Source: an uncultured Planctomycetales bacterium (GTDB lineage: Bacteria > Planctomycetota > Phycisphaerae > UBA1845 > PWPN01). From it: 64,000 nt of DNA. The stretch spans positions 36,916-100,915 of the forward strand of contig CAZPIO010000009.1 in NCBI GenBank assembly GCA_964586235.1, in the 5' to 3' direction. The notes beneath the pieces were generated by a model that saw only the letters and a list, made by a program, of their open reading frames with translations, was not told where the DNA came from and made no database searches. This document shows, one piece after another, positions 4,062-33,256 of the stretch; the stretch's first letter is position 1; each line of letters opens with the position of its first letter. A program made the translations under genes and the position numbers.

Positions 4062-7000
4062 ATGTCATTCAGGCCTGCAACCAAGCAGGGCTTCGCCCGC
4101 ATCTCGAGGCTCAGGCTTGGCCGGACGCTCGGGCATCACCCGCCCATGAGAGGAGATTGCCGATCGGGAACCACCCCCCGCTCCGCGCGGCTGCGGCTGT
4201 GGTTCCTCGGCATCCTGTGGGTTTGCCTGATGGCCGGACGGGCCTGGGGCCTGTCGGTCACGACCGTCGACCCGGCGGGTTACCAGGCCGCCGCGCTGGT
4301 TGACGGCAGCGCCTGCTATGTTGACGCCGCAGGCACAATCACCGGCATTCCGCCCGCTCTGGCGGGTGGGACGCTCATCCGCACTCGAGCCGGCGACGCC
4401 TCGAACCCGTCGCTGGCCGTGAGCTTCCAGGTCGACGTCCGTGCCGAGGTATACGTCTGCTATGAGTCCGAAGCCGTGCCGCCGACTTGGCTGTCCTCCT
4501 GGGTCCGCACCGACATGACCGTGGCCGTCAGCGACGGGGCCGCCGCCAGCTACAGCGTCTACGCCCGGCGTTTTGGCGCCGGAGCGGTGCAGCTCTCGCA
4601 CAACCAGGCCGGGGCCATGTACTTCGTCGTGGTCAAGGAATCGCTGCCCATTCTCCCGCGCTGCGGATGGGTGCTGCTCTCCTACGACATGCCCTACCTG
4701 CGCGAAATCATCCGTCAGGCCCCGCTCTACAACGTCAACCATATCCAGCTCTCGCACGACATCCTGATGTACACGCATCAGCCCCTGGAATCGCCCACAC
4801 TGCGGGCCGACCTCAACGAGTTGATCGATCTCGCTCACGCGTACGGGATCACGGATGTGACCGTCTGGACGCATGAGATCGACACGCGCAACATACCCGC
4901 CCAGTGTCTCACTGCCGACGGCCGGGTTGACGGCGACAAACCGGAAGTCTGGGCATGGATTGAGAGCCGCTACAGCCAGCTCTTCACCACCGTCTGTCCC
5001 GAACTGGACGGCGTGGTGGTCACATTCAGCGAAGTGGACAGGGGCTGCGAGGTCTGGAATGCGTGTCTCAAATTCAACGGCTCGGTGGCCGAGGCGGTCA
5101 GGAAGGTGAATGAGGCCATCCAGGCGGCATGCCACGAGCACGACAGGACCTGTTACGCCCGCACTTGGGCTGGCGAATACCAGTTTGACATCCGCGACGC
5201 GATTCAGGACAGCGACGACACGACGACCTGGATGATGAGCAAGAACGTCGGCGGTGCGTCGGGCTGGGACTGGCAGTACATGGACACCCATCTGTCGGTA
5301 CTCGGCACGCTGACGGGCGGATACAACGAGCTGGTCGAGTTCGATCTGTGCGGGGAGTACCTGGGTCGGTCGCAGTACACGTTCGCCATGGCCGCCTATC
5401 TCAAGGAGCATTGGAACTACGCCTATAACTTGGGCGTCCGAGGGGGTATCGTCGCCCGCATCGACCGCGAGGGGGCGTTGACCAACTACACCTCAAACCG
5501 CATCAATCTCTACGCCGCAAGCCGGATCCTGGCCGACCGCAACGCCGACCCCGCCGCGGTCAACCTGGCGTGGTGCCGGCAGTATTTCGCGGCGGATGCG
5601 ACCCAGGACATCGCCGACCACTACGACGATCCCGGCACTTCCGGCGACGATACAAGGCTTCTGACCTGGGAAGCATTCTTCCCCGGTCTGTCGCCGGTGA
5701 CCAACACCCAGGCCCTGGAGATCGGACGCAAAGCCATCGGGCGCCTCGACAAGCACCGGGCGCAACTGGAAATCCAGACCACCCTCGATACCCGCAATCG
5801 CAAAACCGACTACGAGACCCTTCGCAACGGAATCGCGATGACCATCCTCGACCTTGGCGGGTCGGTCCCGGAGGCACTCGGGTTCTCCAACTTCCGGCCG
5901 GCCCGGACCGAGATCCTCAGCCCCAATTGCCTTGTGGATGTGCGTCTGCCCGCCCCCGGCCTGAAACCGAGCACAGCCTCCTGCGAGTATTCTACGAACG
6001 CGGGTGTGACCTGGTCCGCACGGCCCGTCACGTGCAGCGGTTCGAACGGCAGCACGGGTACGGAGACCATCGCGGCGGCGGGCGTTCCGTTCAACCAGCT
6101 CAGCGAAGACCGCAATTTCATCCGGTTCCATGTGGCTGACATGAACGGCGTCGTGTGCGACAGCGGCATGTTGCGAGTGTCCACGGTGCCGCCCGTCGTC
6201 TGGTCAGGCTCCCAGCCGGAGATCAGCCTCTCACTGACGCCGGATTGCACGATCACGGTCGCCACGACCGGCCGGCCGCTGGACCCGGCGACGGCCCGCT
6301 ACCAGTACAGCACGGACGGCGGCCAGAGCTGGATTACGCCTGCAGTCAATTGGGAAGGTCGCTACGAATGCAGCAAGTATCCGTGGGAAGACGGCTGGGC
6401 GGTTGTGGAAGGGCACACCGGCTACGAGTCGGTCAACAACGGGATCCTCACCATCAACGACAACAGCGCTGACGGGAACACGAAGGTCAAGTACGCCCGC
6501 TTCTGGAACGCGGATGCTGAGGCAGGCGCCACCGTCGAAGCCAGGATGCAGTGCCTGTCCGGCGGACACTTTTTCAGCAGCAATCTCCAGTTGGCCGACA
6601 CACTGCACGTGCAGTCGCTTCACCTCAAGGCCAACGGGATCATCGGCCTTTACCCGACGTGGACGCTGGTTCCCGCGAACACGACCGACTGGCACGTCTA
6701 TCGCGTGACCATCCGCGGCACGGACCTCAATGTGTACGTGGATGGCCACCCACGGCCGGTGCTCCCCGCGAACGGCTACTTCCACCAGCCGGCTGACACT
6801 CCCCAACAACTCCTGTTCGGTTCCGGCGCCAGTGCGGGCACGCAGTACATCAACTACGATTACCTGTATTGGTCCACCGCCGGCGCGTTCGCACCGGGTC
6901 CCTGGCAACCGGCCGCATACAGCGGCGGGCCTCGGGGTGGAACCATCACCGCATCCAGTGTGCCGTTCAACCAGCACTCCAACACGCTCAACAGGATCCA

Positions 7001-7286
7001 GTTCAGCATCAACGATGCACAGGGCCACGCCTGGCAGAGCCCTGTGTACAAAGTGCCGATCTCGGATCGGGTGGTCTGGGCCGACTTCGACGGCGACGAA
7101 GACGTGGATCTGGAAGATTTCGGGCATCTGCAACACTGCCTGACCGGGTCCGGCGAGCCCTATCACCCGAATTGCGATGATGCTGACGGCGATACGGACG
7201 GCGATGTGGATCTTGAGGATCTCGCTGCTTTCCAGCAGTGCATTACGGGAGCAAACGTGCCGCCGGATCCGAACTGCGAGAATTGA
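4062..7286 (+). CDS. secreted multidomain protein: CBM-like N-domain, TIM-barrel-like segment, Ig-like modules, LamG-like module, dockerin-like tail
   Basis: ATG 4062 with GGAGGA (4050-4055) 6 nt upstream. A long N-region is followed by the hydrophobic core LWFLGILWVCLMAG. The LamG-like stretch reads ILTINDNSADGNTKVKYARFWNADAEAGATVEARMQC. The C-terminal double EF-hand DFDGDEDVDLEDF...DTDGDVDLEDL...PPDPNCEN spans 7083-7283. Confidence 0.85.
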   Translation: MSFRPATKQGFARISRLRLGRTLGHHPPMRGDCRSGTTPRSARLRLWFLGILWVCLMAGRAWGLSVTTVDPAGYQAAALVDGSACYVDAAGTITGIPPALAGGTLIRTRAGDASNPSLAVSFQVDVRAEVYVCYESEAVPPTWLSSWVRTDMTVAVSDGAAASYSVYARRFGAGAVQLSHNQAGAMYFVVVKESLPILPRCGWVLLSYDMPYLREIIRQAPLYNVNHIQLSHDILMYTHQPLESPTLRADLNELIDLAHAYGITDVTVWTHEIDTRNIPAQCLTADGRVDGDKPEVWAWIESRYSQLFTTVCPELDGVVVTFSEVDRGCEVWNACLKFNGSVAEAVRKVNEAIQAACHEHDRTCYARTWAGEYQFDIRDAIQDSDDTTTWMMSKNVGGASGWDWQYMDTHLSVLGTLTGGYNELVEFDLCGEYLGRSQYTFAMAAYLKEHWNYAYNLGVRGGIVARIDREGALTNYTSNRINLYAASRILADRNADPAAVNLAWCRQYFAADATQDIADHYDDPGTSGDDTRLLTWEAFFPGLSPVTNTQALEIGRKAIGRLDKHRAQLEIQTTLDTRNRKTDYETLRNGIAMTILDLGGSVPEALGFSNFRPARTEILSPNCLVDVRLPAPGLKPSTASCEYSTNAGVTWSARPVTCSGSNGSTGTETIAAAGVPFNQLSEDRNFIRFHVADMNGVVCDSGMLRVSTVPPVVWSGSQPEISLSLTPDCTITVATTGRPLDPATARYQYSTDGGQSWITPAVNWEGRYECSKYPWEDGWAVVEGHTGYESVNNGILTINDNSADGNTKVKYARFWNADAEAGATVEARMQCLSGGHFFSSNLQLADTLHVQSLHLKANGIIGLYPTWTLVPANTTDWHVYRVTIRGTDLNVYVDGHPRPVLPANGYFHQPADTPQQLLFGSGASAGTQYINYDYLYWSTAGAFAPGPWQPAAYSGGPRGGTITASSVPFNQHSNTLNRIQFSINDAQGHAWQSPVYKVPISDRVVWADFDGDEDVDLEDFGHLQHCLTGSGEPYHPNCDDADGDTDGDVDLEDLAAFQQCITGANVPPDPNCEN

Positions 7287-7373
7287 GACCGCCTTCGCCT
7301 CCCGCTCCTGGTCAGCGACTGATCACCGCCCGCCTTGCGGAAGGCTCATTGGTCGGCACAACCGACACCCCTG

Positions 7374-8519
7374 TCAGGCCAAGGCGACGGAACGCCGCTC
7401 CACCAGGTCGACGTCCACGAGCACGTGCTCCGGCTTGACGTCGCCGCTACCACTCTGCAATCGTCGTTCCAGCAAATCGACCGCCTTGAGGCCGATCTCG
7501 TGGACGCGCTGGGCAACGATGGTCAACGGCGGGGTCATCGCCTGGGCAATGTCGGAATCATCGAAACCCACGATCGAGACATCTTCGGGAATCCGCAGGT
7601 GCAGCTCGCGGCAGGCCTCGAACACGCCCCACGCAGTGAAGGCGTTATGGGCGAAGATGGCCGCCGGTCGTGTGGTGTTCCTGAGCACGGGAAGGGCCGC
7701 TTCGTACCCGCCCAGCCAGCGACGACCTTCAAGCGTTCCTCGTGTTGTCAGCCGGCCGTCCGCAAAGACTTTCCATTCTCGCCGGGGCTCCAGGCCCCCA
7801 TCGATCAGGGCCTGCTCGTACCCCCGGATTCTGGCCGCAATCGACGTCGCCCAGGGGGGCTCGGTCACCATGATCACCCGGCGGTGGCCGTGCTCCAACA
7901 GATGCTGTGTCGCCAGGTAGGCCCCCTTCTCGTGATTGGATTCAACCAGATCGACTTTCAGGCCGGGAACGCCGCGATCCAGCAGAACGAACGGATAATG
8001 CGCCAGCTTCATCTTGAAAAGGGCTTCAATGTTGTGATGGACACCCGTCGGCAGGATGACGGCTCCTTGAGCGCCGGAGTTGCCGAGCCGCGAGAGGTTT
8101 CGCGCCTCAAGATCCCGGTCGAAGCGCGAATCGTAAATCTGAAGCCCCCACCCGCGTTCCTGGCAACCCGCTTCGATACCGCGTGCGATACCCGTTTCGA
8201 AAGCTCCGGCAAGATCCAGCGTTACCAGAGCTATGATGACTTGAGCCGCGGCCGGGCGGGCAGGGTAGTTCGGACTCACGAATGCCCCTACCGCCGGCAC
8301 GCTGTACAGGCAGCCCTCACGCTCGAGAATGTGGATCGCAGACCGGATGGTGTTGGTGCTGACCCTGAGTTCGCCGGCCAGGCTGCGAAGGGCAGGCAGC
8401 TTGACGCCCGCCGTCAGACGGCCGTCGGTCATGCGTCGGCGTAGCTCGTCAGTAACCACTCGATAACGCGGCGATTTTGAGCGAATCAGCTTGCCATTGC
8501 CGTTCTCGGCTCTGCTCAT
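7374..8519 (-). CDS. AraR-like chimeric transcriptional regulator (GntR-type HTH plus LacI/PBP1-type sugar-binding domain)
   Basis: The N-terminal winged helix LPALRSLAGELRVSTNTIRSAIHILEREGCLYSVPAVGAFV is GntR-type. The C-terminal core carries LacI-family signatures (RRVIMVTEPPWATSIAARIRGYEQAL and VSIVGFDDSDIAQ). I chose the ATG at 8519 (MSRAENG...); the track ORF starts at a TTG at 8555. Confidence 0.85.
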   Translation of the reverse strand: MSRAENGNGKLIRSKSPRYRVVTDELRRRMTDGRLTAGVKLPALRSLAGELRVSTNTIRSAIHILEREGCLYSVPAVGAFVSPNYPARPAAAQVIIALVTLDLAGAFETGIARGIEAGCQERGWGLQIYDSRFDRDLEARNLSRLGNSGAQGAVILPTGVHHNIEALFKMKLAHYPFVLLDRGVPGLKVDLVESNHEKGAYLATQHLLEHGHRRVIMVTEPPWATSIAARIRGYEQALIDGGLEPRREWKVFADGRLTTRGTLEGRRWLGGYEAALPVLRNTTRPAAIFAHNAFTAWGVFEACRELHLRIPEDVSIVGFDDSDIAQAMTPPLTIVAQRVHEIGLKAVDLLERRLQSGSGDVKPEHVLVDVDLVERRSVALA

Positions 8520-8677
8520 GACGACATTGTATAGTCGCGCGGTGACGTAATGCAAGAAGCTGTGTCAACAGATATCAAGGCCATTTTTCCTTAATACCTT
8601 CTCAAACAATGACTTATGCCATATAAGCCGATCAGGAAAACTATCTCAAAAACACGTCACATTATGACGAATCATTG

Positions 8678-8706
8678 TTGCATCAACCCAGTACGTCTGG
8701 TAGGAT
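8678..8706 (+). promoter_or_regulatory. candidate promoter for the giant-gene cluster
   Basis: TTGCAT (8678-8683) is followed by a 17-nt spacer and TAGGAT (8701-8706). It lies in the AT-rich divergent region between the regulator (start 8519) and the gene starting at 8784. Confidence 0.3.
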
Positions 8707-8783
8707 TACGCTTATGGAGCGGGATAGTCTGCCCCACAGCGGGAGTCAACCTTTCTAATCTGAAACGAAGCGGAGGAACGGAA

Positions 8784-11700
8784 ATGATGACAAAACTGAT
8801 GAGCAGGGGTGTTGGCATTCTGGTGATCGGCCTGGTGCTGGCGAGCCAGCGCGCCAACGCGGACGTGATCTGTTGGGAGTTTGCCGTCCATCCCACCCAG
8901 GAACCGATCCCAATGCTCGGGTTCGCATCAGACACGGCATGGCCTGATCCCGGTGAGCCTCCGTATACCCCCTACGGCGGGACGGTCGCGGGCACCGGTC
9001 TCCAGGGTGACGGGACAGCCATCTTCGCGGACGCCACAACCGAGAGCGCCAACTCGGGTTTCGTCTACGGTCTGACCAGCGGCAGCTTCACCATGGACGT
9101 TCGGGTAAGGGTCTTGGAAAGCGTGAACGAAGGCCCCGGCAAGTCAATGACCGTCAAGAACGACGGTAATCAGCGCGGCATCAAGCTGAACACGGACCGC
9201 ATCGCACTAGTCAACGGCGGCGAAGAGGTCGCAGCCGGGAATGTGGACCTGGCAAGCGCCTTCAAGATCCTCCGGTTCTCGGTGAACTCAACCACGGCGG
9301 CTGTTGACCCCAATATCGTCACGTTCTACGCGTGGGACGCGGGCACCTCAACATGGACCTTGGTGGGGAGCACATCGCTGGGCGGGTCCGGCGGCGGGGG
9401 CCAGGTTCCGTTCCCGGGAGTCGGGATCGGAAGCCTCGCCGGCAGCAGCACCCAGAGCGGCAAATTCATCATTGACTGGGCCCGCGTCAATCCCACCGAG
9501 GCGCTGGGCGACACCGTCGGCCCGATGGGGCCGTGCGAGGCAAAGTGTGAATCCACCGTGACACCGGCTGCTGTCCAAACCGACAGCGGCTGGGTCGGCG
9601 GCCTTCCTGCCACGTATGCCAGCATTGACATGGGTTCACCAGATGTCACCAACGGCTTGACTAACGAGAACACCGTGGGCTCCGACGGCGACACCGCGCC
9701 GGTTGTCGTCGCCGGCCGGCCCTGCCGGATGAACGTCGATCCCGCGACGGACGGCTTCATGTACTTCGCGATTGATGACGACGTGGCCTACCAGGGCAGT
9801 CTGCCTGCGGTGACCATTTCGTTTGACTACTTCGACGAGGGCACCGGAGCCTTCGGGCTGACCTATGATGGGCCGGCTTCCGAATGGACCGACGCCGCGG
9901 GCACCGTTCCTCTCAGTGATACAAAAACCTGGAAGCGAGGCAGCTTCACGCTCACCGACGCGTATTTCGGCAACCGCCAGCACGACGGGTCCGATTTCCG
10001 CATCGCCAGGGGCATGAACGTCCATTTCTACATCGACAACGTCTTTGTCTCTCATGCGCCCGGTCCCGAATTCGACTACTCGATAACTAACTCGGGCGCG
10101 GTCGACATCACCTGGGACGTCATTGAAGCCAACGCCGACGGCACGGCCAACGACTACGCCTGGGTAAGTCTGACCAAGACGCCGGGTGTGCTCGCCCCTG
10201 AGGCCACGGCGCCGGTCAAGGCCGCGGTGGATACCGCCACGCTGGCCGCGGGTACGCACACGACGTACCTGAAATTTACCGACACGTGTACGTTCGCGCC
10301 CTACGCCGAGCCGTTCGACTACGCGGATGCTTCCGTTTTGGCCGGCCAGGGAGGCTGGCTCGGGAGCGGCGAGACTTCTCCATTCATCATTCAGACCGCC
10401 CAGCTCCAGCTTAACGGCGGCGCGGAATCCGGTCTGGCGCATTCCGTTTCCCATTCCGTCGGGCTGGCCGTATATGACGGCGTGTTCTCCGTCAAGGTCA
10501 AGGTGAAGACCGGCGGCGCCTCGGCCGGCCGCGAAGCCAACAACTTCTGGAGACTAGCTGCGTTCGACGCGCAGGGGAATCAGCTCGGCTATTGGCAGGG
10601 AACACCCACCACCGTCAGGGCTAGAAATCCGTTGAATGCCAACCAGGCCTCAGATCCTCAGGCGTTGGCCGCCGACTTCAAGATCATGGAGATGAGAAGC
10701 AATACCGCAACCAAGACCACGGAGTACTATTATGACGGCGCCCTGGTGATCAGCTATCCCTTTAACAACACCAGCGGCCTGGCCTCGATCAGTTTTGAAC
10801 GCATCAATGGGGCCGATACCAGTGCCGCCGAGTACGTCTACTTTGATGATGTGGACGTGAGCGCCATCGAGAAGTACCACCTCCGCCAGATCAGCGTAAA
10901 CGTGGTTGACTGCAGCCTGACCGCGGAGCCCAGGGTTGCCTCGGCGAGCGGGTGCACCGGCACCACAACCCGCAGCTTCGCCCTCATCAATAACGGCGTG
11001 AGCAACCTCACCGAGTTGGCTGTCGAGCAGATCACGAGTGGCGGTGAACCGACCACCTACCCGTGGCTGTCGCTGTCGGTGCCCAGTGCGACCCTCGCAC
11101 CGGGCGAGTCCGCCGAGGTGGTGGCCACCATCGACTGGAACTACGTCAGCATGACCGAGGTCGCTTCACTCCGGTTCAAGGCCACTTGCGGCGGCGCCGA
11201 AATCAGGGACAGCCTCGTCGGCGCCCTGACCGTCACGAAGATGGTTGTGCCTCCCGATCCGGTGATCCTGAGATACAACGGCGATGTGGACCCCCTGGCT
11301 GCGAACTCCGCCGGGCCGGGCTACAACTTCAGCGTCTTTGAGGGTGTTCAGCAAGGAGGCATTGTCGCTGATCCTGATGCGGTCGACGGCTTTGCCTATG
11401 AGATCGACGATGTCTCCACCGCGAAGACGAAGTTCATCAGCGAGCCCCCGGCGGCTTTTGCAGACGGTGCCACCCTGGTCGTTCGCATGAAGAAGCTCGG
11501 CGGCGGCACCTACGACGGCGGTCGTTACGGCAACATCTGGATCCACGCCCCCAACATCGCCACTGAGATCTTCTGGGGAGGGCCGAGTGGCCAGCTTGGC
11601 GACAGGGACCGCGGAATCTGGACCACCCTGACCGCGAGCCAGGGCGCGGATGAAAGCTATCATACCATCCGGGTCACGGCCCAGGACACGGGCGGTTCAA

Positions 11701-12215: not shown

Positions 12216-12395
12216 GCCCGCAGGCGTCGGAGCAACAATCGAGGGATGTGGCGAGTATGTGTCCGCCCGACCCGCGAAAAGAACGAAGGGCAGCCCCCGG
12301 TCAAACCGGGTAAGGCATGGTTCACTCGTCCGTGCAACGGCGAATGATTGAAAACGTGCACGCCAGGATGAACCTGCCTGCCGATTCTCCTCCTT

Positions 12396-12427
12396 CCCCG
12401 GCTTCGTGACGGCCGGGGCTGCCTTTT
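12396..12427 (+). terminator. candidate intrinsic terminator after the 8784..12215 gene
   Basis: A 7-bp stem CCCCGGC (12396-12402) pairs with GCCGGGG (12412-12418) around a 9-nt loop. It is followed by CTGCCTTTTCGCTT. The T-run is short and offset, so support is modest. Confidence 0.4.
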
Positions 12428-12712
12428 CGCTTGCGAGGGCGAGAACACGAGACAGCGGGTGCGACACAGGCTTGAGGCTTTGTCTCGCCCGCTGTCTGTC
12501 GGGCGGGGTCTGCTCGGCGCTGCGCGCCTGTCCCCATTTTCGCGGGCTCAGGCCCTCTGGAGTGCCACGGACCCCGGGTTTGCGCGGTGAAGGTGCACGA
12601 GGGCAGATCAGCCGCCCGCCGCTCCGCCGGCGTGCAGCCGCCGGGAAGGCCACGCTGAGGCGCAGTCCAGATCCGCCGGGCGGGGACAAGTGGGTCGTTG
12701 GACGGTAGCGAT

Positions 12713-14914: not shown

Positions 14915-15059
14915 CCGGTGGAAACGGAGGGATGGCGAAGTATGCCTGCGAAATCTGACGAGGCAATCGCCTTGAAAGCCGCGGGAGGGAGGGGAGCCCC
15001 TGTACCAATGCCCCCCAACGACCGGATGTAGTGCAAGGAGAGCATGAAGGAGGCCTGAA

Positions 15060-18000
15060 GTGCGGATCTCTGCCCTTCGGCGTGGCCAACGAGTGATGTT
15101 GGGGGCGATGGCCCTGGTGGTGACCTTGACGGGATCCGCCCCGTTGCAGGCGGTGGGCATCCATCCATCCGGGCGGTACTACACCGATACGGCCGGGAAT
15201 CCTGTATTCCTGATCGGCTACTATGGCTGGGCCGCGGTGCCCGCCGGCTATTTCATCGACCACCCATCCCAGTACGCCGACATGATCACCCGCGGGGCAC
15301 CCTACGGGATCAACTACAGCCGCATCAGCCTGGGCGTCAACCGCTTCACCAGCACGACCAATCCGCCGGTGTATTATGGCTCGCCGACGCCGGTCCCCTT
15401 TCTGTACGTCAATGGCAAGGCTGATCTCAGCCAGTGGGACCCGGTGTTCTGGAACGGCCTGAAGGCCCAGTGCGACCTGGCCCGGGCCAACGGCGTGATC
15501 GTCCACATCGCTTTTTTTGACGGCGTGGAGTTGCGGAGTCAGGGGGGCGCGGCCTACGGCTACAACAACTCGTTCTGGAATCCGAGCAACCACACGTCAT
15601 CCTTCTACCCCACAGGCGACTATTCGGACTGGCCCGGCGCTTTCTATAGACTCAATGAGTTCAACAGCAACACCGGCATCGGCTACTACCAGAGACGCGT
15701 GATCGACAAGACCCTGGCCGAGACCTTCGGCTACGACAACGTCTTCTACGAGGTAGGTAACGAACTGCTCAGCGCCGATCAGAACTGGTACACCGCTGTG
15801 GTCAGTTACGCCCGGTCGCAGACGAACAAACCGGTCACGCAGTGCAGCCATGCATTCAGGGCTGGCGGCATCCAGGGTTACGCCGACCACGTCGGCGACA
15901 CCGCGGCCGAGGTGAAGAGCCACATTGCCGGCTTCGTGGCCACCGCCAACGGTCAGTACCCGACCTGGATCGACCCCGACGGCCCGGCCCTGAGCAACGC
16001 CGATATCCCCGCCAACGAGCTGCGCGCCGCCGCCTGGTACTCATTCACTGGCGGGGCCGCATGCTGGGGCGGATTCACGGTGGATTACTGGCTCGGGGGA
16101 CGGGGCTTCTGGCCGGACACGGTGAACGCCTACAAGCACTTGCAGGACTTCCTCAAGCAGTTGAACGTCCAGTTTGCCCAGATGGTGCCCCACCCTGAAC
16201 TGGTCAGCAACAGCAGCGCCAACTCCTGTCTGGCGTACGTTGGGCACGAATACGTGGCTTACGTTCGCAGCGACGCCGGCGTGACGGTGGACCTGACCGG
16301 CTTGTCGGGCTCGCTGCCGTACTACCTCTACGACCCGAAGAACGACGTGTACAGCAGCCGGCAGACCGTGAGCGGCGGCGGCCAGCGGGTGTTTGCCCGG
16401 CCGGACGGGGCCGCGGACTGGGTCGTGTATATCGGCACGGGCGAGCTGTCGGAGTGCCCTCCGATCAGTCCACCGAGCCCGCTTGGGGCTCAGCAGACCC
16501 TCGGGGACGGCATCGAGCCCGGCATCGCCACCGACGCCCAGGGCAGTATTCACGTCGTCTATATGAACAACGGGACAATCTGGTACCGTCAAGGCGATCC
16601 CGACGCCGTCTTCGACGCCCCTGAACTGATCCCCTCTCCGACAACGGGTCCGGCCCAGTTCAACGCCCCTCATGTAGTCTGCGACGGCAGCAATACCCCC
16701 CACGTGGTCTTCTCGGACGCCTTCTATCCGACCCCGGGGAACTGCTGGTACACCAATCGCATCGGTGGGAGTTGGAAGGCTCCGGTGTCGGCATTCCCCG
16801 GCGTGATCGTCATGTACCCGCGCCTGGCCTTGTGCGGCTCGTATGCCTTCGTAGCAGCCTCGACCGGGACCCCCGAGGGCACCATCGCACGCCTTTCGAA
16901 TCTTGGCGGCACGCCTCATGTAGACCTCACAACCGGCACTTACCTGTTGGCCCCCTACCCGGTCGTCAACTGTGCTGCCAGCCGTCTGTTTGTCGTCGGC
17001 CGCAATTCCGGCAACGGGCACTACCTCCAGGAATACAATTTCAATCTCGCAACGGTCAGCAGCGGCCAGAAGATGACCAATGGCACGCCCAACAAGACCG
17101 CCGAGCCCACTGCCGCGATCATCGACAGCTCCAATGTCGTGCACGCCATCGGCAATTGCGGGGCAACGGGCATTGACCCCGAGACGAACAGCGAACTGTG
17201 GTACAACAACACCCAGCGCATGGGCCTGGGCGAAAACGCCGTCCTCGGTCTCGCCGGTGTGCCCGGGTCCGGCTGGTGGGGTGACAACGTTTATCCCCAC
17301 ATGGTCATGGACATCAACGGCAAGATCTGGCTTGGCTTCCGGGACATCACCACGGGCGAGGGCAAAATCAGCTCCGTCAGCGACGCCGGTTTCACCGAAC
17401 CGATCGTGTTCACCCCGGTTATCACCGACCCTAACAACCCCATCCGGCGGCGGTGGAACTGCCAGGTCGCGCCCGCGCCTACAGGCGGCGTCTATGTCAC
17501 CTGGGATTACGGCAACCAGTGCTACTTCCGGCCGGCCGGGGTGTTCTCACTCTGCGATCTGGCGGTCTCGTTCGACCTCGGCTCTCCCGATGTGGCGAAC
17601 TGCATGACCCATCCGCAGGGCGGCGACGGCGACACGACGCCCGATACCATCGGCGGCCGAAGCTGCCGGCGCAACATCGATCCGAGCCCCCCGCCGGCGC
17701 CCGGCGCTGACTACTACTTCTATTTCACCGTCTGCGACGGGTTTGCCTACCAGGGCAACAGGCCGGAACTCTACATCGCACTCGATTACTACGACTCCAG
17801 CGGTGGGTCGATTTCGCTCGATTACGACTCGAACACGGGCAACGATATTCCGGCCATCTATAAGAACGGCGGCAGCATTACCTTGACCGGCTCGAACACG
17901 TGGAAGAACGCGGTGTTCCACGTCACCGACGCGTATTTCGGCAACCGCCAGAACGGCGGGGCCGACTTCCGCTTCGGCAACGTGGGGAACTGGTTCTACC

Positions 18001-18500
18001 TGGACAACGTGCGGGTTTCAGTCCAGCAGCCGCTGCCACCGGTCATCGCCGAAGTAACGCCGGACCTGCAGACCGCCTATCCAGGGGTCGCATACTCTCA
18101 ACAACTGGCGTTGACCCAGAACTGCCCGAAATCAACCTGGTCGATGGTCCAGGGCCCGCCGGGAATGTACGTCTGCCAGAGCAATGACCGCGTCCTCGGC
18201 TGGACCCCTGCTCCGAGCGACCTGGGCGATCACACCATCGTGGTCCAGGCCTGCAACCCGATCGGCTGCGATACGGTAAGCTGGATCGTACGGGTGCTTT
18301 CCAGCAGGGATTTTGACCTGGACGGCGACGTCGACCAGGAGGACTTCGGCTTCTTCCAGGGCTGCCTCTCGGGCAGCGGTGCCGGCTATACCTCGGGCTG
18401 TGCTCCCGCAGACCTGGAATCGGACGGCGATGTCGATCAGGCTGACTTCAGCCTGTTCTGGCCCTGCATGGCCGGTTCAGAGGGCTTGCCGGGCTGTTGA
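15060..18500 (+). CDS. secreted putative clan GH-A-like glycoside hydrolase with beta-propeller-like middle, X module, Ig-like domain and dockerin-like tail
   Basis: GTG 15060 with GAAGGAGG (15046-15053) 6 nt upstream. Signal peptide ...MLGAMALVVTLTGSAPLQA. The TIM-barrel-type motif VFYEVGNELL supplies an acid/base-like NE. X module 17571-18020, Ig-like domain 18021-18308, tail 18309-18497. Confidence 0.85.
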   Translation: MRISALRRGQRVMLGAMALVVTLTGSAPLQAVGIHPSGRYYTDTAGNPVFLIGYYGWAAVPAGYFIDHPSQYADMITRGAPYGINYSRISLGVNRFTSTTNPPVYYGSPTPVPFLYVNGKADLSQWDPVFWNGLKAQCDLARANGVIVHIAFFDGVELRSQGGAAYGYNNSFWNPSNHTSSFYPTGDYSDWPGAFYRLNEFNSNTGIGYYQRRVIDKTLAETFGYDNVFYEVGNELLSADQNWYTAVVSYARSQTNKPVTQCSHAFRAGGIQGYADHVGDTAAEVKSHIAGFVATANGQYPTWIDPDGPALSNADIPANELRAAAWYSFTGGAACWGGFTVDYWLGGRGFWPDTVNAYKHLQDFLKQLNVQFAQMVPHPELVSNSSANSCLAYVGHEYVAYVRSDAGVTVDLTGLSGSLPYYLYDPKNDVYSSRQTVSGGGQRVFARPDGAADWVVYIGTGELSECPPISPPSPLGAQQTLGDGIEPGIATDAQGSIHVVYMNNGTIWYRQGDPDAVFDAPELIPSPTTGPAQFNAPHVVCDGSNTPHVVFSDAFYPTPGNCWYTNRIGGSWKAPVSAFPGVIVMYPRLALCGSYAFVAASTGTPEGTIARLSNLGGTPHVDLTTGTYLLAPYPVVNCAASRLFVVGRNSGNGHYLQEYNFNLATVSSGQKMTNGTPNKTAEPTAAIIDSSNVVHAIGNCGATGIDPETNSELWYNNTQRMGLGENAVLGLAGVPGSGWWGDNVYPHMVMDINGKIWLGFRDITTGEGKISSVSDAGFTEPIVFTPVITDPNNPIRRRWNCQVAPAPTGGVYVTWDYGNQCYFRPAGVFSLCDLAVSFDLGSPDVANCMTHPQGGDGDTTPDTIGGRSCRRNIDPSPPPAPGADYYFYFTVCDGFAYQGNRPELYIALDYYDSSGGSISLDYDSNTGNDIPAIYKNGGSITLTGSNTWKNAVFHVTDAYFGNRQNGGADFRFGNVGNWFYLDNVRVSVQQPLPPVIAEVTPDLQTAYPGVAYSQQLALTQNCPKSTWSMVQGPPGMYVCQSNDRVLGWTPAPSDLGDHTIVVQACNPIGCDTVSWIVRVLSSRDFDLDGDVDQEDFGFFQGCLSGSGAGYTSGCAPADLESDGDVDQADFSLFWPCMAGSEGLPGC

Positions 18501-18523
18501 GTAACGTCGATAAGGAGTTGCGA

Positions 18524-21500
18524 ATGGGATCTCAAATGAGACGGCATCACAGGCAAGTGACGTGTGTTGGGTTAATCAGCCTGGTGCTGGCCACCGGCGC
18601 GATGGTCCAGGCCGGGGTGGTGCTGGACGATCCGCTGCAGGGTTCCACCAAAGGAATCCAGGATGGTGGGACCTTCGATTCGGGCGGCTGGAGGGTTACA
18701 GGCGATTATGACTCTATCATTTGGCATCTGCCGCACACTGTGAGCAAGGGTGCCGCCGAGTTCTATGTTAAAGGGATAGACTCGAACTATCCGCACAAGA
18801 CGGAGCACTTCCACATGTACGACTACACGTGGTACAACTCCGACTATCAGTACGGCGACCCCGGCTACAGGAACAATCCCTACAAGCATTTCGTCAGGAA
18901 GACCGGAACCGACGATGCGGCCAGAAACGGTTCCTGCGAGATCGTCTACGCCACCCCCCTGGAATGGTTCGAGTTGGACACGGCGGTGTTCTCCTGGTCC
19001 ACGGACACAAACTACAAAGTTCGCATCGAGTGGGGGCCGGAGGGCGACAACACTCGCCTCAAGGTTTTCAGAGACGGCGTCCAGATGCTCAGCGAAGCGA
19101 TCGCAGGCAACTATGTTCCCACCGGACACAGTGTCCGGCTCGGGGCAAGCCCGAGGAGAGCCGGTGAGGGCTCGGAAATCGGTGCCGTATACAGCTATCT
19201 CAAGGTCTGGGATTTGTCGAGTTACGTTCCTGATCCTCCGACGGTGAGTCTTCCGGCGAATGGAGAAACGATCAGGAGCAACCTGGCATTCATCAAATGG
19301 ACGGGCGACAGCCATACTGATTACCAGGTGAGGATCTGTACCGCAGATAACCCCGAGGCAGGCATCATATGGGATTCACAAGAGGTAACCTCCATCCGTG
19401 ACTGGGCATGGACAGGCACCCTGTCCAACCTGGCCAACTACTACGTCTATGTCAGGCTGGGGAACTCCGGGGACTGGAGCGACTGGAGCGCCGCGGGCCG
19501 CTGGTTCCGAGTGGATAATTCATACAATGACTCCAACAACGTGAAAGTCCAGGGCAACAGCCTGAAAGACGGCAACGGACCGTTCCTGGGTTTCGGCTGG
19601 ACCTACATGGCGGCCATGTGGATGTGCAGGAACGACCGGGCGGGATTCCAGAGCGACCTGGATTTCATGAATGACAAGGGTTTCAACTACATGCGGATTC
19701 TGTCGGAGGTGCCCGGAGCCTGCTCGAGCTGCTACTGGTGGGGCCGCAGCATCAACGCGAGCACTTACCAATGCCAGCACGGTGCCTGGGCAAATCCGTG
19801 GTCGGATTACGATCAGCAGCTCAAGGACTGCATCGATATCGCCTACGACCAGTATGGGATCAGAACGGAAGTGACCATTTTCGGCGGCGCCGGCGAGTCA
19901 TTCCCGACATACGCGGCCCGACAGGCACACTGCCAGCGGGTATTGGACAGTCTTGTGGGACGGGAGCACAAGGTGATCCAGATCGAAGTGGCCAACGAGG
20001 CCTGGCAGACGGGTTTCCCCGGTTCGCAGGGCATAGCCGACCTGCGGAGCCTGGCGGCGTATCTCGCGGCCCGCACCTCGATTCCCGTTTCACTCAGCGC
20101 CACCTGCGGGACTAATGATGATCTGCTGACGTTATACAGCGGGAGCGCAGCGGATATCACCACGGAGCATTTCAGCAGGGACCTGGGAACGTCTGAAGGT
20201 CATTGGTATCCGGTACGGGATTGCTGGCGGGTGGGAACGCTGTATCCGACGATAGCGCCGGTCAGCAGCAATGAGCCGATCGGCCCCGGTTCCTCGGTCA
20301 ACAGCGAAGACCATCCGATTCACATCGCCTCGGCCGCCGTTTTCGCCTGGACGGCAAACCTGCCCATGTACGTGTTTCATTCGCGGGCCGGTGTTCGCCG
20401 CGACGTGCCCTTCCAGAACATGGCCGGAGTAAACGAGCTGGTGTACCTGCGGCAGATACTGCCGCCGGACCTGGCCAGTTGGGTCAGAAACGACGGGATC
20501 GAGGGTTCCGCACCGTTTACCGTCTTCTGCAACGGCCAGGCGAACAAGTACTGGACCGATGTAGTTGGAGCCAGCACCGGATGCCACAGGAGCATCGGCG
20601 GGATCAAGGCTGGGGAGTTTGTCTGCTATCCGCAGGGGATACTCGACGGAGGGGTCACCCTGCAGGCCCGACGAAACGTGAGCTTCACCATCTACAATCC
20701 GCTCACGGGTGTAACCGTCGATACCATGACCAGGAACGCCGGTGAGCAGTTCAATCTACCGAAGGGGCCGGAAGCCTACATCATCAAGGGCATCTTCACC
20801 GACATCATCGGACCACCTGACCAAGCCTCCATCGATCTGGGCGACCCCGACGTGCAGGACTGCATGGCCCTGGTCCCGGTCGGCGACGGCGACACGGTCG
20901 TGGCCACGGTCGGCGGCCGGACCTGCCGCAAGAGCGACCAGCCTGACGATGACTATTACTTCTACTTCGCCGTCTGCGATGCCTTCGCCTATGAGGGCAG
21001 CCGGCCGGATCTCTGGATCAGCTTCGACTACTACGACTACGACACCGGCACCATCACCCTGCAGTACGACTCCGTCGCCGGGATCGGTCAGCCTGGCGGG
21101 GATGCCACCCATTACGTAAACGGCGGCAGCGTCACCCTGACCAACAGCAACCCCCCGACCTGGAAGCACGCGAAGTTCCACTTGACCGATGCCGGCTTCA
21201 ACAATGGCCAGAACGGAAACGCCGACTTCCGCCTCGGGAAGCTCTGGGGCCCGTCCTGGCCAGCCAAGCAGCCGTTCTACATCGACAAGGTGTGGGTCAC
21301 GGCCGAGGAACCGGTGCCTCCGGTCATCGACGAAGTGGCTCCCGATCCAAGGATCGTCGCCGTCGGCACCGCGTACACCGAGCCGTTGAGCCTGGCCCAG
21401 GGCACGTTGCCGGTGAGTTGGTCGGTGGTCGAAGGTCCGGCGGGTCTGCAGGTGAGCTCGAGCGGCCTGGTCAGCGGGTGGACACCCGGTATCGCCGACC

Positions 21501-21778
21501 TGGGCGAGCATACGATCACGGTCAAGGCGGAGAACTTCGAGGGCTGGGATCCCGAAACCTGGGTGGTGCAGGTGACCTCCAACAAAGATTTCGACCTCGA
21601 CGGCGACGTGGACCAGGCGGACTTCGGCCTGTTTCAGCGTTGCCTGTCAGGCGACGGAATCGGCTATCCGGACGGCTGTGCCCCCGCTGACCTGAGCGGG
21701 GACGGCGACGTCGATCAAAGCGACTTCAACCTGTTCTGGGCGTGCATGGCCGGCTCCGGCCGGCCGCCAGGGTGTTAA
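18524..21778 (+). CDS. secreted putative clan GH-A-like glycoside hydrolase with LamG-like N-domain, WDS module, X module, Ig-like domain and dockerin-like tail
   Basis: ATG 18524 with AAGGAG (18512-18517) 6 nt upstream; the track ORF starts at a TTG at 18497 that overlaps the previous stop. Signal peptide ...VTCVGLISLVLATGAMVQAG. The motif VIQIEVANEAWQ includes ANE at 19991-19999. WDS module 19229-19516, X module 20831-21301, Ig-like domain 21302-21586, tail 21587-21775. Confidence 0.85.
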   Translation: MGSQMRRHHRQVTCVGLISLVLATGAMVQAGVVLDDPLQGSTKGIQDGGTFDSGGWRVTGDYDSIIWHLPHTVSKGAAEFYVKGIDSNYPHKTEHFHMYDYTWYNSDYQYGDPGYRNNPYKHFVRKTGTDDAARNGSCEIVYATPLEWFELDTAVFSWSTDTNYKVRIEWGPEGDNTRLKVFRDGVQMLSEAIAGNYVPTGHSVRLGASPRRAGEGSEIGAVYSYLKVWDLSSYVPDPPTVSLPANGETIRSNLAFIKWTGDSHTDYQVRICTADNPEAGIIWDSQEVTSIRDWAWTGTLSNLANYYVYVRLGNSGDWSDWSAAGRWFRVDNSYNDSNNVKVQGNSLKDGNGPFLGFGWTYMAAMWMCRNDRAGFQSDLDFMNDKGFNYMRILSEVPGACSSCYWWGRSINASTYQCQHGAWANPWSDYDQQLKDCIDIAYDQYGIRTEVTIFGGAGESFPTYAARQAHCQRVLDSLVGREHKVIQIEVANEAWQTGFPGSQGIADLRSLAAYLAARTSIPVSLSATCGTNDDLLTLYSGSAADITTEHFSRDLGTSEGHWYPVRDCWRVGTLYPTIAPVSSNEPIGPGSSVNSEDHPIHIASAAVFAWTANLPMYVFHSRAGVRRDVPFQNMAGVNELVYLRQILPPDLASWVRNDGIEGSAPFTVFCNGQANKYWTDVVGASTGCHRSIGGIKAGEFVCYPQGILDGGVTLQARRNVSFTIYNPLTGVTVDTMTRNAGEQFNLPKGPEAYIIKGIFTDIIGPPDQASIDLGDPDVQDCMALVPVGDGDTVVATVGGRTCRKSDQPDDDYYFYFAVCDAFAYEGSRPDLWISFDYYDYDTGTITLQYDSVAGIGQPGGDATHYVNGGSVTLTNSNPPTWKHAKFHLTDAGFNNGQNGNADFRLGKLWGPSWPAKQPFYIDKVWVTAEEPVPPVIDEVAPDPRIVAVGTAYTEPLSLAQGTLPVSWSVVEGPAGLQVSSSGLVSGWTPGIADLGEHTITVKAENFEGWDPETWVVQVTSNKDFDLDGDVDQADFGLFQRCLSGDGIGYPDGCAPADLSGDGDVDQSDFNLFWACMAGSGRPPGC

Positions 21779-21851
21779 CATGCGTCAACGATTGGCATCG
21801 GCCGTCATCATGGCTCTTTGTGCGTGTCGCGCGGAGATAGGGAGATCTTTG

Positions 21852-24800
21852 ATGAACAAGTTCTGCTTAACGTCCGCTGGTTTCGCCGTTGTCTTCATTT
21901 CTCTCTTGTTTCCTGCTGTTGTGGGAGCAGCCCCCGTACTGCCTCATGTCTACCATAGCAGCATCAATCTCAGGCCTTACGAGTGCATTGCAGCGCACAA
22001 TGTTACCTACTGGAAGAACAAGATATACATGGGAGGGGCATCAATCTGTGACGACAGAACTGTCTGGCAGATCAATGTGGCCAATCCCGACAACCTTGTA
22101 TGCGAAAGCGGCGCTGGACCCGGCTGCAAAGCGTATGGGGTTAAGGTTGTAGAGGACATTCTCTATGTCGCCAACTGGTCTACAATGATGCGGACTTACA
22201 GCGTTGCAGGCGCTATTACGCAGCTCGGTGAGTATTCCGCTCCCTTTTGGTTTGGTTGGAACATAGACGCCTCAAACAACCGGGCCTACGTTAACGAGGG
22301 TAACGAGACCCAGAGCAAACTGGTTATCATGGACGTCTCGAATCCAGCGTCGCCTAGCGTGATCTCCTATCTCCCTCTCAGCAGGGGCGGCGGGCTGACC
22401 GTCCGTGGCAGCTATGCCTACTTCACGGACGACTACAGGTTCACGATTGCCAACATCTCCGACGAGAACAATCCTTACATCCTGTCAAGCATCGACTTCG
22501 GCCATCTGCTCCTTGGAGGCGTTCAAGTGCGCGGCAACTACGCCTACATGTGCTGGAGCCAGGTTACGGATGGCGGACTGATGGTCTTTGACATTTCGAA
22601 TCCTACCGCGCCAGTACTTAAGGGACAGTTCGCCGGCGAGGGCGCGACTGACATGTGCCTCCTTGGCGATTATGCGTTTTACCCGACTTCCGGCAACGGG
22701 TTCATGACAGTAGACATATCAGATCCGACGAATCCACATGCGGTGGCACAGTCCGAAATCCCCTTCTACGCGCTGGAGCTGTGCGTAACCGGAAATGGGC
22801 GGTATGCCTACGTCGGAAGTCTCGCCGGCGACAACGAGGGATGGCTGAGCTCCTTTGAAGTTCTGGATCAGGATCCGGACAACGCCGGGCCGACCAACTG
22901 GAGCAACTGCTCGCTCAGCGAGGCATCCTGGGATCTTCAGTACGAAGGCGACGCCCTGCCGACGGCGGCCAATCCGGCGTGGACACTCGTCGAGGGCTCG
23001 GATACCTGGGCCGGCGCGTCGGGCGGCATCCTGCGAATCAACGACACCGGAACCTCGCTCGGCGACAAGGTCAAGTGGGCCCGCAGTTGGGATGCCACCA
23101 ACAGTCGCGGCACCACGGTTCTCACCCGGGCAAAATGCGCCTCCTACAGCACCGGGCCTGGCTCGATCTCGTCGCTCGTCAATCTTTCCGTCCGGGACGG
23201 CAAGTACATCGAGGACTTCTCCATCCTCTCCGACCGGATCCGGGCCGTCCGGGCGAGCCAGGAGTACTTCCTGGACGGCACCGCCTGGCATACGTACCGG
23301 ATCACCACCCAGGGTTCTCAGTTCCAGGTGTTCGTTGATGAAGCTTCAGCGGCCGTTCTCACGGCGCCGCTGTTTGTGAGCAAGGATCAGGACCCGGATG
23401 CCCGCTGGGCGCGGGTGTTGATCGGCAGCGGATCGAGTCCCGGCACACAGGACATCTCCTTCGACTATGTCCACTGTTTCTCGAACGGCGCCGTAGGGCC
23501 GAGCACCGTCGTGAACGAGTTCACTCCCACAATCAGCGCGGACGCCGCCGACGTGGCCGGGAAAGGCTCGCTCAGCGGGATCGATCCGGCCACCGCCAGG
23601 GTGCAATGGTCAACCGACGGTGGTCTCACCTGGAATTCGAGCGGCGGCATCCAGTGGCAGTGCCGCTATGAGGCAACTCTGCTGCCATCGGCGTCGACGC
23701 CGAACTGGGATGTGCCCGAGGGCAGCGAGAGTTGGGCCAGCGTCAGTTCCGGCGTACTCCGCGTCAATGACACCAGCACCGCCCCCGGCACGAAGATTAA
23801 GTGGTCGCGCGACTGGAATGCCTCTCCCGCGGTCGGGACGACGGTGGTCGCGCGGGCCCGATGTGCCTCGGTTGGCGGAGACACGACGTTCCTGGGGAAC
23901 ATCTTCGTCGAGGACGGCTCCACCGGCGAACGCTTCAAGATCATGACCGACCGGCTGGTGGCGGCCGAGACAGGGTTGACTTATCTGCTCGACGCAACGC
24001 AATGGCACGTCTACCGGATCACGACGAAGGAAGGGCAGTTCCATGTGTATGTGGATGAGAACCCCGCGCCGGTGCTGGCGGGCGTCCTCGGCATGGCGAC
24101 CTCCAATAACCGCGTCATGTTCGGGAGTGGAGCCAGCGCCGGGACACAGGACATCTACTTCGACTATGTGCGTTATACGGCCCAAGGAGGACTGCCTCCG
24201 GGCCAGGGTGATGGAGGCGGCCCCGTGACGGTGACCTGCGTTCCCAGGAGTCCGCTGGCCCCGCCCGACCGCGCCACCGTGACTGCGTATGACATCCCCT
24301 TCGTCCAGAACTCGCAGGTTCTCAACAGGGTCAGGTTCTCTCTGACTGACCTGGCGGGCAACGTCGGACTGAGCCCGATCTACGCCGTGCGGATCGCAAA
24401 CGCACCGCCCCCGGCTGTGGCCGATCTGGTGGCGGCCTCTGCCGACCGCCAGGTCACGCTCTCGTGGCAGAACCCGTCGTCCGTCGAATTCACCGGCACC
24501 ATGATCCGCTTCAGCACGACTGACTATCCAGCCGGTCCGGCCGACGGAACGCTGCTGGTGGACCGGGCGAATGCGCCCGGCTCGAATGACAGCTACGTCC
24601 ATACCGGACTGACCCGCGGCCAGACATACTACTATTCCGCGTTCGCTCACGACGCCGTCCCTAATTACGCTGTCGCCGCACATGCCAAGGGGAAGGGCTC
24701 TTTTCTGCCCGACCTTGACCTGGACGGCGACGTGGATCAGGAGGATTTCGGCCGTCTGCAGGCTTGCTTCTCCGGCTCCGGGCAAGGCTTCGAGGCCGCA

Positions 24801-24902
24801 TGCGCCGACCTGGATTTCGATACGGACGGCGATGTCGATCAGGACGATTTTGAAGTGTTCAGGGCATGCCTGGCCGGCGCCGATAGTGCGCCGGGTTGTT
24901 GA
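21852..24902 (+). CDS. secreted LVIVD-repeat beta-propeller protein with two LamG-like modules, Fn3 and dockerin-like tail
   Basis: ATG 21852 with GGGAGA 6 nt upstream; the alternative ATG 21780 abuts the previous stop. Signal peptide MNKFCLTSAGFAVVFISLLFPAVVGA. LVIVD-type repeats include KLVIMDVSNPASP, GLMVFDISNPTAP and GFMTVDISDPTNP. The duplicated modules read ILRINDTGTSLGDKVKWARSW... and VLRVNDTSTAPGTKIKWSRDW.... Fn3 at ~24405-24710, tail at 24711-24899. Confidence 0.85.
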   Translation: MNKFCLTSAGFAVVFISLLFPAVVGAAPVLPHVYHSSINLRPYECIAAHNVTYWKNKIYMGGASICDDRTVWQINVANPDNLVCESGAGPGCKAYGVKVVEDILYVANWSTMMRTYSVAGAITQLGEYSAPFWFGWNIDASNNRAYVNEGNETQSKLVIMDVSNPASPSVISYLPLSRGGGLTVRGSYAYFTDDYRFTIANISDENNPYILSSIDFGHLLLGGVQVRGNYAYMCWSQVTDGGLMVFDISNPTAPVLKGQFAGEGATDMCLLGDYAFYPTSGNGFMTVDISDPTNPHAVAQSEIPFYALELCVTGNGRYAYVGSLAGDNEGWLSSFEVLDQDPDNAGPTNWSNCSLSEASWDLQYEGDALPTAANPAWTLVEGSDTWAGASGGILRINDTGTSLGDKVKWARSWDATNSRGTTVLTRAKCASYSTGPGSISSLVNLSVRDGKYIEDFSILSDRIRAVRASQEYFLDGTAWHTYRITTQGSQFQVFVDEASAAVLTAPLFVSKDQDPDARWARVLIGSGSSPGTQDISFDYVHCFSNGAVGPSTVVNEFTPTISADAADVAGKGSLSGIDPATARVQWSTDGGLTWNSSGGIQWQCRYEATLLPSASTPNWDVPEGSESWASVSSGVLRVNDTSTAPGTKIKWSRDWNASPAVGTTVVARARCASVGGDTTFLGNIFVEDGSTGERFKIMTDRLVAAETGLTYLLDATQWHVYRITTKEGQFHVYVDENPAPVLAGVLGMATSNNRVMFGSGASAGTQDIYFDYVRYTAQGGLPPGQGDGGGPVTVTCVPRSPLAPPDRATVTAYDIPFVQNSQVLNRVRFSLTDLAGNVGLSPIYAVRIANAPPPAVADLVAASADRQVTLSWQNPSSVEFTGTMIRFSTTDYPAGPADGTLLVDRANAPGSNDSYVHTGLTRGQTYYYSAFAHDAVPNYAVAAHAKGKGSFLPDLDLDGDVDQEDFGRLQACFSGSGQGFEAACADLDFDTDGDVDQDDFEVFRACLAGADSAPGC

Positions 24903-25031
24903 TCGACTGCCTGAGCGCCCGGAGGATTGCCTCAGGGCCTGCGCGGGGATATCGTTGAAGTTGGCTGGGGCAGCTTTGTGCAAGCCGTCCCGGCTTTGTT
25001 GAGGCACCTGTTTTCATCGAGGGCGATGCAG

Positions 25032-33200: not shown

Positions 33201-33256
33201 GCAGCGATTCCTTCCGTTCTCGTGCCTCCCATGCAAAGCCGACTGCACGCGGCTTA

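Follow-up and report, generated by a model that had tools for sequence, protein, structure and literature searches.

The 64,000-nucleotide (nt) stretch of contig CAZPIO010000009.1 analysed here (the window; G+C content 62%), from an uncultured Planctomycetales bacterium, carries seven genes whose products appear to be exported and end in one and the same short, duplicated C-terminal tail, for which a dockerin-type fold is predicted. Planctomycetota, notably Phycisphaerae, play a major part in degrading complex glycans of algae and sediments. The tail signature, that of a highly expanded, phylum-wide dockerin variant with its all-Asp loops, its conserved Gln and its two pairs of Cys, would offer a handle for finding the machinery by which they keep large sets of exoenzymes at the cell surface. 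The relatives found for both the tails and the protein bodies support the placement of the window in Planctomycetota that had been made in a preliminary description of its sequence. The same description referred to the seven proteins as giants; at 733–1146 amino acids (aa) they are large only.

Genes 2–6 (Table 1) are co-directional and separated by intergenic gaps of 497, 145, 23 and 73 nt. As described previously, these five nearly contiguous genes lie behind a sugar-type regulator, which belongs to the GntR family and is divergent from gene 2; this arrangement suggests that the five-gene block is induced by carbohydrate. Five of the seven tail-encoding open reading frames (ORFs) offer a possible start codon further upstream than the start chosen in the preliminary description, and for gene 6 the chosen start at 21852 is backed by a 1016-aa orthologue that is 94% identical. 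The signal peptides assigned to all seven proteins agree with a heuristic check of the N-termini, each of which contains a basic stretch, then a hydrophobic 12-mer and then a small-residue cleavage-like site; the mean Kyte–Doolittle values of the 12-mers (1.77–2.82) lie above the 95th percentile of internal windows of the same proteins (1.69).

Table 1. Positions of the tail-bearing genes and of other features of the window. Cys-dockerin denotes the predicted dockerin tail with four Cys; module assignments are predictions.
Feature	Position	Strand	Description
Gene 1	4062..7286	+	1074 aa: signal peptide, ~600-aa N-domain, BNR-like and LamG-like modules, Cys-dockerin tail 7083-7283
Gene 2	8784..12215 (ORF opens 8616)	+	1143 aa: signal peptide, module A (CBM-like, aa 280-423; 9606-10073), BACON-like and LamG-like modules, long-linker Cys-dockerin tail 11955-12212
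Gene 3	12713..14914 (ORF opens 12698)	+	733 aa: signal peptide, fn3-like N-domain, uncharacterised body, fn3-like pre-tail module, Cys-dockerin tail 14723-14911, PGC end
Gene 4	15060..18500	+	1146 aa: signal peptide, ~480-aa N-domain, module A (aa 837-987; 17547-18029), Ig-like module, Cys-dockerin tail 18309-18497, PGC end
Gene 5	18524..21778 (ORF opens 18497)	+	1084 aa: signal peptide, fn3-like module, module A (aa 764-926; 20801-21313), He_PIG Ig module, Cys-dockerin tail 21587-21775
Gene 6	21852..24902 (ORF opens 21780)	+	1016 aa: signal peptide, LVIVD beta-propeller repeats, two LamG-like modules, fn3-like pre-tail module, Cys-dockerin tail 24711-24899, PGC end
Gene 7	57973..61311 (ORF opens 57490)	+	1112 aa: signal peptide, N-domain, two Ig I-set domains, long-linker Cys-dockerin tail 61081-61308
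Regulator	7374..8555	-	GntR family (53 bits) with periplasmic-binding-protein-like sugar-sensor domain (Peripla_BP_3, 117 bits)
PEP-CTERM protein	2339..3214	-	secreted
Transglutaminase-core protein	24927..26051	+	lipoprotein-like N-terminus
ORF with weaker module A copy	29820..33248	-	copy at C-terminus
Tail-less paralogue of gene 7 N-domain	33678..35549	-	
Internally repeated protein	35474..37018	-	secreted, 514 aa
PEP-CTERM protein	61674..62561	+	secreted
Window-end ORF	62875..64000	+	cut by window edge

A six-frame regular-expression search of the whole window located the duplicated loop–helix motif at seven sites only, each at the extreme 3' end of a long ORF on the + strand, and a hidden Markov model (HMM) built from the seven tails detected no additional copies, not even weak ones, in the six frames of the window. 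These are exactly the tails of 63–86 aa recorded in the preliminary description. The tail, of ~65 aa, consists of two tandem F-hand units, in each of which a 12-residue all-Asp Ca2+ loop (D-x-D-x-D-G-D-V-D-Q-x-D) leads into a short amphipathic helix (F-x-x-F-Q-x-C), followed by a further loop of 10–12 residues that ends at a second Cys. When the seven tails are aligned, Asp is invariant at the Ca-ligand positions, as are four Cys, two per repeat. The first Cys of each repeat, three residues past the helix motif, had been noted previously; the second, 9–18 residues further downstream, had been missed. Among 101 aligned tails, Asp occupies loop positions 1, 3, 5, 7, 9 and 12 in 96–100% (repeat 1) and 70–100% (repeat 2) of the sequences, Val is found at loop position 8, Gln occurs at position 10 in 84% (repeat 1) and 57% (repeat 2), and each of the four Cys is 99–100% conserved. 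Both halves of the tail read loop-helix-C-x-[ST]-G-...-C, so that the duplication unit includes the Cys pair. The surface-exposed helix residues Q10, F13, F16 and Q17 are strongly conserved in both repeats. The tail is acidic and helical and carries no hydrophobic or basic anchor; in four of the seven proteins (genes 3–6) it ends in Gly-Cys, as PGC directly before the stop codon. As judged from these alignments, the four Cys are the most distinctive feature of the tail and define a large subfamily.

Dockerin_1 (PF00404) is the best Pfam family for all seven tails (14.7–28.1 bits) and is matched at E<=1e-3 by 16 of 58 long tail-bearing relatives, and the EF-hand_1, EF-hand_5, EF-hand_6, EF-hand_7 and EF-hand_8 models give 8–14 bits on the tails against cut-offs of 25–30. 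In a PDB profile search with the tails, the best match was the double dockerin 8x39 of C. thermocellum (E 1e-7), followed by CIB1 and, after it, the classical dockerins 2vn6_B, 5lxv_B, 5nrk_B and 1daq. The AlphaFold2 model of the gene 5 tail, computed from the 101-sequence alignment, has a predicted local distance difference test score (pLDDT) of 96.3 and places helices at residues 15–23 and 49–56, each right after a loop. Foldseek ranked 2y3n_B first among PDB entries (template-modelling scores TMq 0.71 and TMt 0.79, root-mean-square deviation 2.3 A, prob 0.99), the non-cellulosomal NagH dockerin 2ozn_B second and then 2vn6_B; calmodulin, troponin C and CIB1 superpose on the model only at TM 0.23–0.31. 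According to the model, the tail is a dockerin, i.e. an F-hand pair, and not a canonical EF-hand pair. The latter was rejected on account of the low EF-hand scores, the poor superposition and the lack of an entering helix before each loop; the 12-residue Ca-loop logic of calmodulin and CIB1 is common to the tail, and CIB1 is a mid-ranking profile match. The dockerin-like character proposed earlier is consequently upheld by Pfam, the PDB profile and Foldseek, and of the 'double EF-hand' the EF-type Ca loops remain but not the fold, which is predicted to match dockerins rather than calmodulin-type pairs.

The nearest NCBIfam model is NF041540, 'GC-type dockerin domain-anchored protein', a term that was not met in the literature searched. 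This model resembles the tail in describing a C-terminal dockerin variant, of 67 positions, that is named by NCBI as an anchoring domain, and in the Gly-Cys end of four of the seven tails; most tail relatives, in contrast, end in C-x-x and not in GC. Only the tails of genes 4 and 5 match it, with 11.8 and 13.1 bits where the cut-off is 29, and the other five give no match to it. Because the two matches lie so far under the cut-off, the four-Cys tails are best regarded as a subfamily that is related to, but separate from, the GC-type dockerin.

A word-indexed profile search returned 418 matches. In the best 120 of the 418, which were inspected, the tail is C-terminal throughout and contains at least four Cys in nearly all, and the few named matches among these 120 are proteins of Planctomycetes or Sedimentisphaerales metagenome-assembled genomes (MAGs), mostly labelled 'hypothetical protein'. 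When 1.84 billion representatives were searched exhaustively with HMMER, 16,648 clusters (50% identity) matched at E<=1e-3 and 6,435 at E<=1e-10, numbers that are upper bounds for the four-Cys subfamily because the top scorers are multi-copy classical dockerin arrays; among the 150 proteins listed by HMMER, 100 of the 136 newly returned ones have a Cys-type tail in their last 85 residues. The taxonomic distribution was scanned with a degenerate DNA pattern for DGDVDQxDFG over GTDB species representatives, in which at least 111 stretches matched. Among the 111 matches listed, 109 are in Planctomycetota MAGs, mostly Phycisphaerae, and several genomes have at least 8–13 loci each; tail-rich MAGs include JAKLEZ01, BTUC01 and CAZOIA01. 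A match in Omnitrophica proved to be a thrombospondin-type-3-like repeat and not a four-Cys tail, and no tail ORF was present at a match in Acidobacteriaceae. Among the genomes sampled, the putative subfamily is thus nearly confined to MAGs of Planctomycetota (Phycisphaerae), which have many copies each. Four consecutive genes with the tail occur in the complete Planctomycetota MAG chromosome CP070790.1, which indicates that the clustering of tail genes is conserved.

The position of the motif bears on a further explanation, in which the tail would be a C-terminal signal that dedicated export or attachment machinery reads for sorting or secretion, like the C-terminal domain (CTD) of the type IX secretion system (T9SS) or PEP-CTERM with its exosortase; it might then be cleaved off, or processed covalently at the terminal Cys. 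At the pattern loci listed, the motif is C-terminal in 137 of 141 motif-bearing ORFs (132 of the 141 have at least four Cys), the last Cys mostly lies 0–8 residues before the stop codon, and the commonest ending is C-x-x, PGC being a minority form. Like T9SS Por_Secre_tail, PEP-CTERM and S-layer homology (SLH) domains, the tail marks many proteins per genome, dozens of them, and takes the same position on homologous bodies, including bodies from other phyla that carry T9SS sorting domains there; moreover, two PEP-CTERM proteins are encoded in the window, so the organism uses tag-based sorting. We nevertheless hold this explanation to be very unlikely. Complete four-Cys copies are also found internally or N-terminally in other proteins, which makes the tail a domain and not a terminal signal. 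Its predicted well-packed dockerin fold with canonical Ca sites is unlike any known sorting signal, it has no sequence or fold likeness to Por_Secre_tail, PEP-CTERM or SLH and no transmembrane, hydrophobic or basic anchor, and no conserved machinery gene was found beside the tail genes of the ~26 genomes compared. A match to a characterised sorting domain, an outcome that the preliminary description had considered, was looked for in Pfam and NCBIfam, and none of the PEP-CTERM, T9SS CTD, LPXTG or other sorting-domain models matched the tails even at E<=10. In several of the relatives with an internal copy, the four-Cys dockerin directly precedes thrombospondin type 3 repeats, a recurrent dockerin-TSP3 architecture.

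The bodies of the seven proteins are mosaics of shared modules, LamG-like in genes 1, 2 and 6 and fn3-like in genes 3, 5 and 6. Genes 2, 4 and 5 have in common a module of ~160 aa that belongs to no Pfam family (module A), a weaker copy of which lies in a further ORF on the - strand (Table 1). The AlphaFold2 model of module A of gene 5 (pLDDT 89) leads Foldseek to the jelly rolls of carbohydrate-binding modules (CBM) 6, 11, 4, 27 and 30, MAM and Cry domain III; its 49 database relatives are all named just 'hypothetical protein'. Bodies 1, 4 and 7 contain no Pfam match at E<=0.001, except for immunoglobulin (Ig) domains in the later part of gene 7, and no PDB sequence relatives were found for the N-terminal regions of 480–613 aa of genes 1, 4 and 7 (4062-5900, 15060-16500 and 57973-59500). 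By eye, these regions may represent new glycoside-hydrolase-like domains. The - strand paralogue of the gene 7 N-domain (24% identity over 470 aa) has no tail, so that the window encodes the same catalytic-looking domain once joined to the dockerin tail and once free of it. The earlier summary of the proteins as exo-enzymes and lectins is accordingly borne out in its lectin part: lectin/CBM-like, LVIVD, Ig and fn3-like modules can be assigned from sequence, and the identity as enzymes, with the N-terminal regions of genes 1, 4 and 7 lacking Pfam and PDB relatives, is only putative.

In the 58 long tail-bearing relatives the tail accompanies BACON, TSP_3, beta-helix, CarboxypepD_reg, LamG, DUF642, PKD and lectin domains. 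Recurrent neighbours of tail genes encode sulfatases, glycoside hydrolase family 123 (GH123), DUF2961, carbohydrate esterases, an ABC ATPase and N_methyl/DUF1559 pilin-like proteins, the last of which are hugely expanded in the phylum anyway. The predicted context of the tail genes is that of extracellular glycan processing.

The most informative result on the role of the tail is, in our assessment of the homologues, a 'choice-of-anchor' pattern on the body of gene 6. Among 46 close homologues of this body (44–94% identity), 24 end in the four-Cys tail, 8 in a module ending in ...FYRV and ~11 in an OB-like module, and distant LVIVD homologues end in T9SS Por_Secre_tail, FlgD_ig or SLH domains or in transmembrane helices. 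The swap with these other C-terminal modules indicates that the tail fills the slot of localisation or anchoring modules, and it probably serves as an anchoring or docking module itself. Both alternative modules on the close homologues are unannotated: the first is beta-sandwich-like and ends in ...W..V......FYRV, and the second reads GIKVIT..G.P.V..G.FV.V.GAAG. They may be further anchoring domains.

We consider it moderately probable that the tail works as a docking module, dependent on Ca and locked by disulfides, by which exoproteins are held on a receptor from another locus. Docking is proposed because the predicted dockerin fold is combined with intact Ca sites and with helix-surface residues that are conserved in both repeats. 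After Sec export of the protein, oxidation of the tail would yield a disulfide in each repeat, in the simplest case C1-C2 and C3-C4, each closing the loop after the helix. The oxidised tail would then bind two Ca2+ ions and act as the docking or anchoring module through which glycan-binding and probably glycan-degrading exoproteins would be tethered to a protein receptor whose gene lies in another part of the genome. The most plausible receptor would be a divergent beta-sandwich of cohesin-like type, displayed on the cell surface or carried by a scaffold. The outcome would be a planctomycete analogue of cellulosome-type display.

Several observations weigh against this proposal. The Pfam gathering threshold of Dockerin_1 (22.9 bits) is passed by the tail of gene 5 only (28.1 bits), the other six scoring 14.7–21.9 bits. 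As the preliminary description had stated, no cohesin, scaffoldin or SLH ORF is evident in the window: Pfam scans of ~40 window ORFs gave no match to Cohesin (PF00963) or SLH, ten unannotated ORFs being checked at E<=5, and three clostridial cohesin queries, verified against the PDB, detected no cohesin in the six-frame ORFs of the window and of 113 related loci (824 kb), in a low-sensitivity test that responds poorly to divergent cohesins. These negatives hold for the DNA examined (the 64-kb window and 824 kb of tail-adjacent DNA of relatives), not for the source genome. Cohesin is likewise absent among the 25 listed of the 64 Pfam families matched by the 58 long tail-bearing proteins. Clustering of 550 neighbouring ORFs yielded no gene family that recurs beside tail genes in more than four of ~26 genomes; the receptor, if any, is hence unlinked to the tail genes. 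Apart from the tail, module A is the only module that recurs in the locus; it is predicted to be a CBM-type jelly roll rather than a cohesin, and its candidacy as a hidden cohesin was rejected (hhalign probability against cohesins 0.4%; no cohesin in the Foldseek top 50). To our knowledge, orphan dockerins without a known partner are common, and a dockerin fold does not prove cohesin binding.

The lack of a cohesin in any DNA sampled and of a conserved partner gene beside the tail genes would also fit a dockerin fold that has no protein receptor, i.e. a Ca2+/disulfide-stabilised module that binds an envelope or substrate glycan, possibly by Ca bridging, or that merely stabilises or solubilises the exoprotein. 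Such a role would suit tails carried by proteins rich in lectin/CBM-like modules in neighbourhoods with sulfatases, GH123, DUF2961 and esterases, and many non-cellulosomal dockerins reportedly have no known cohesin. It appears unlikely to us, since the conserved surface helix residues Q10, F13, F16 and Q17 of both repeats fit a protein interface and homologues have bona fide anchoring modules in place of the tail; in addition, we know of no dockerin that binds carbohydrate. Similarly improbable, in our estimate, is a surface display specific to Planctomycetota that uses the four-Cys dockerin as its tag and has a non-cohesin receptor. Dozens of glycan-binding and glycan-degrading exoproteins per cell would then be held, by a module locked with Ca2+ and disulfides, on a new type of envelope receptor or scaffold, a true 'planctosome' that would have evolved independently of clostridial cellulosomes.

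Dockerins as such are not new to the phylum, and the novelty for Planctomycetota claimed in the preliminary description was overstated. A dockerin-bearing hydrolase has been reported from Rhodopirellula baltica (PMC2838879) and sulfatases with dockerin tags from Lacipirellula (PMC6995999), and in Planctomycetes associated with kelp, dockerins have expanded through duplication (PMC5264255). For Nemodlikiaceae, a family of Phycisphaerae, a 'planctosome' of cohesins and dockerins has been modelled (PMC6461901), and a scaffoldin with two cohesins is known from Limihaloglobus sulfuriphilus, which the study concerned places in the PVC superphylum (PMC11557425). The cohesins reported in the last two studies also speak for the docking role proposed above. 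Together with the dockerin fold and motif of the tail, they would be in keeping with an ordinary cellulosome-type system, in which another part of the genome encodes a canonical multi-cohesin scaffoldin together with an anchoring protein, and the seven proteins are the dockerin-bearing subunits. Such a system is, in our view, distinctly unlikely: nothing cohesin-like was found in the 64 kb and the 824 kb of related DNA, the tail subfamily is divergent and lies below the curated dockerin thresholds, and the published planctomycete cases have one or two cohesins and not large scaffoldins (PMC6461901, PMC11557425). The planctosome, which is from the same phylum and class, and C. perfringens NagH/NagJ (2ozn) resemble the tail in having a dockerin fold outside cellulose degradation; both have identified cohesins, whereas none was found for the tail in the DNA examined. 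Furthermore, the planctosome is a bioinformatic model for peptidases (PMC6461901), and the tail locus carries lectin/CBM-like proteins.

With the type I dockerins (PF00404; 2vn6_B, 1daq, 2y3n_B) the tail shares a length of ~65 aa, two 12-residue Ca loops each with a helix, an internal two-fold pseudo-symmetry and a usually C-terminal position on secreted glycan-active proteins. It differs from them in its all-Asp loops (DxDxDGDVDQxD), the usual loop being D-x-N-x-D-G-x-I/V-N, and in its four invariant Cys, the near-invariant Gln at loop position 10 and the Gram-negative Planctomycetota host. Where the tail has this Gln, clostridial dockerins have a Ser/Thr or Ala/Leu recognition pair. Dockerins in Planctomycetota are thus already known, and the four-Cys, all-Asp, Gln-10 subfamily as such was not found described.

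The tail bears on the long-standing question of what 'orphan' non-cellulosomal dockerins bind. Curated models miss the subfamily, with six of the seven tails below the Pfam threshold and all seven below that of NF041540, and as a result most members are labelled 'hypothetical protein'; thousands of proteins would be annotated better with a dedicated HMM. A docking module of this kind, small, locked by disulfides and dependent on Ca, could also find use in protein engineering.

Some further genes of the window deserve mention. The two secreted PEP-CTERM proteins carry the canonical tags ...VPEPASLILLALGAVPMLGRRR (- strand) and ...TPEPATLSLLALGGLVALRRKR (+ strand; Pfam PEP-CTERM 20.5 bits), each directly before the stop codon, and point to exosortase-type sorting used alongside the dockerin tails. 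Directly 3' of gene 6 lies the gene for the transglutaminase-core protein, which keeps this place in the 94%-identical relative (JGI 3300027914); a role of this protein in tail processing was considered and dropped, as it occurs near tails in no other genome examined. The window-end ORF encodes a signal peptide and FG-GAP-like DxDGDGDxD repeats, which are Asp-rich Ca-type loops and not a dockerin tail. Finally, the internally repeated protein consists of two ~230-aa repeats that have no Pfam match and look ConA/LamG-like by eye.

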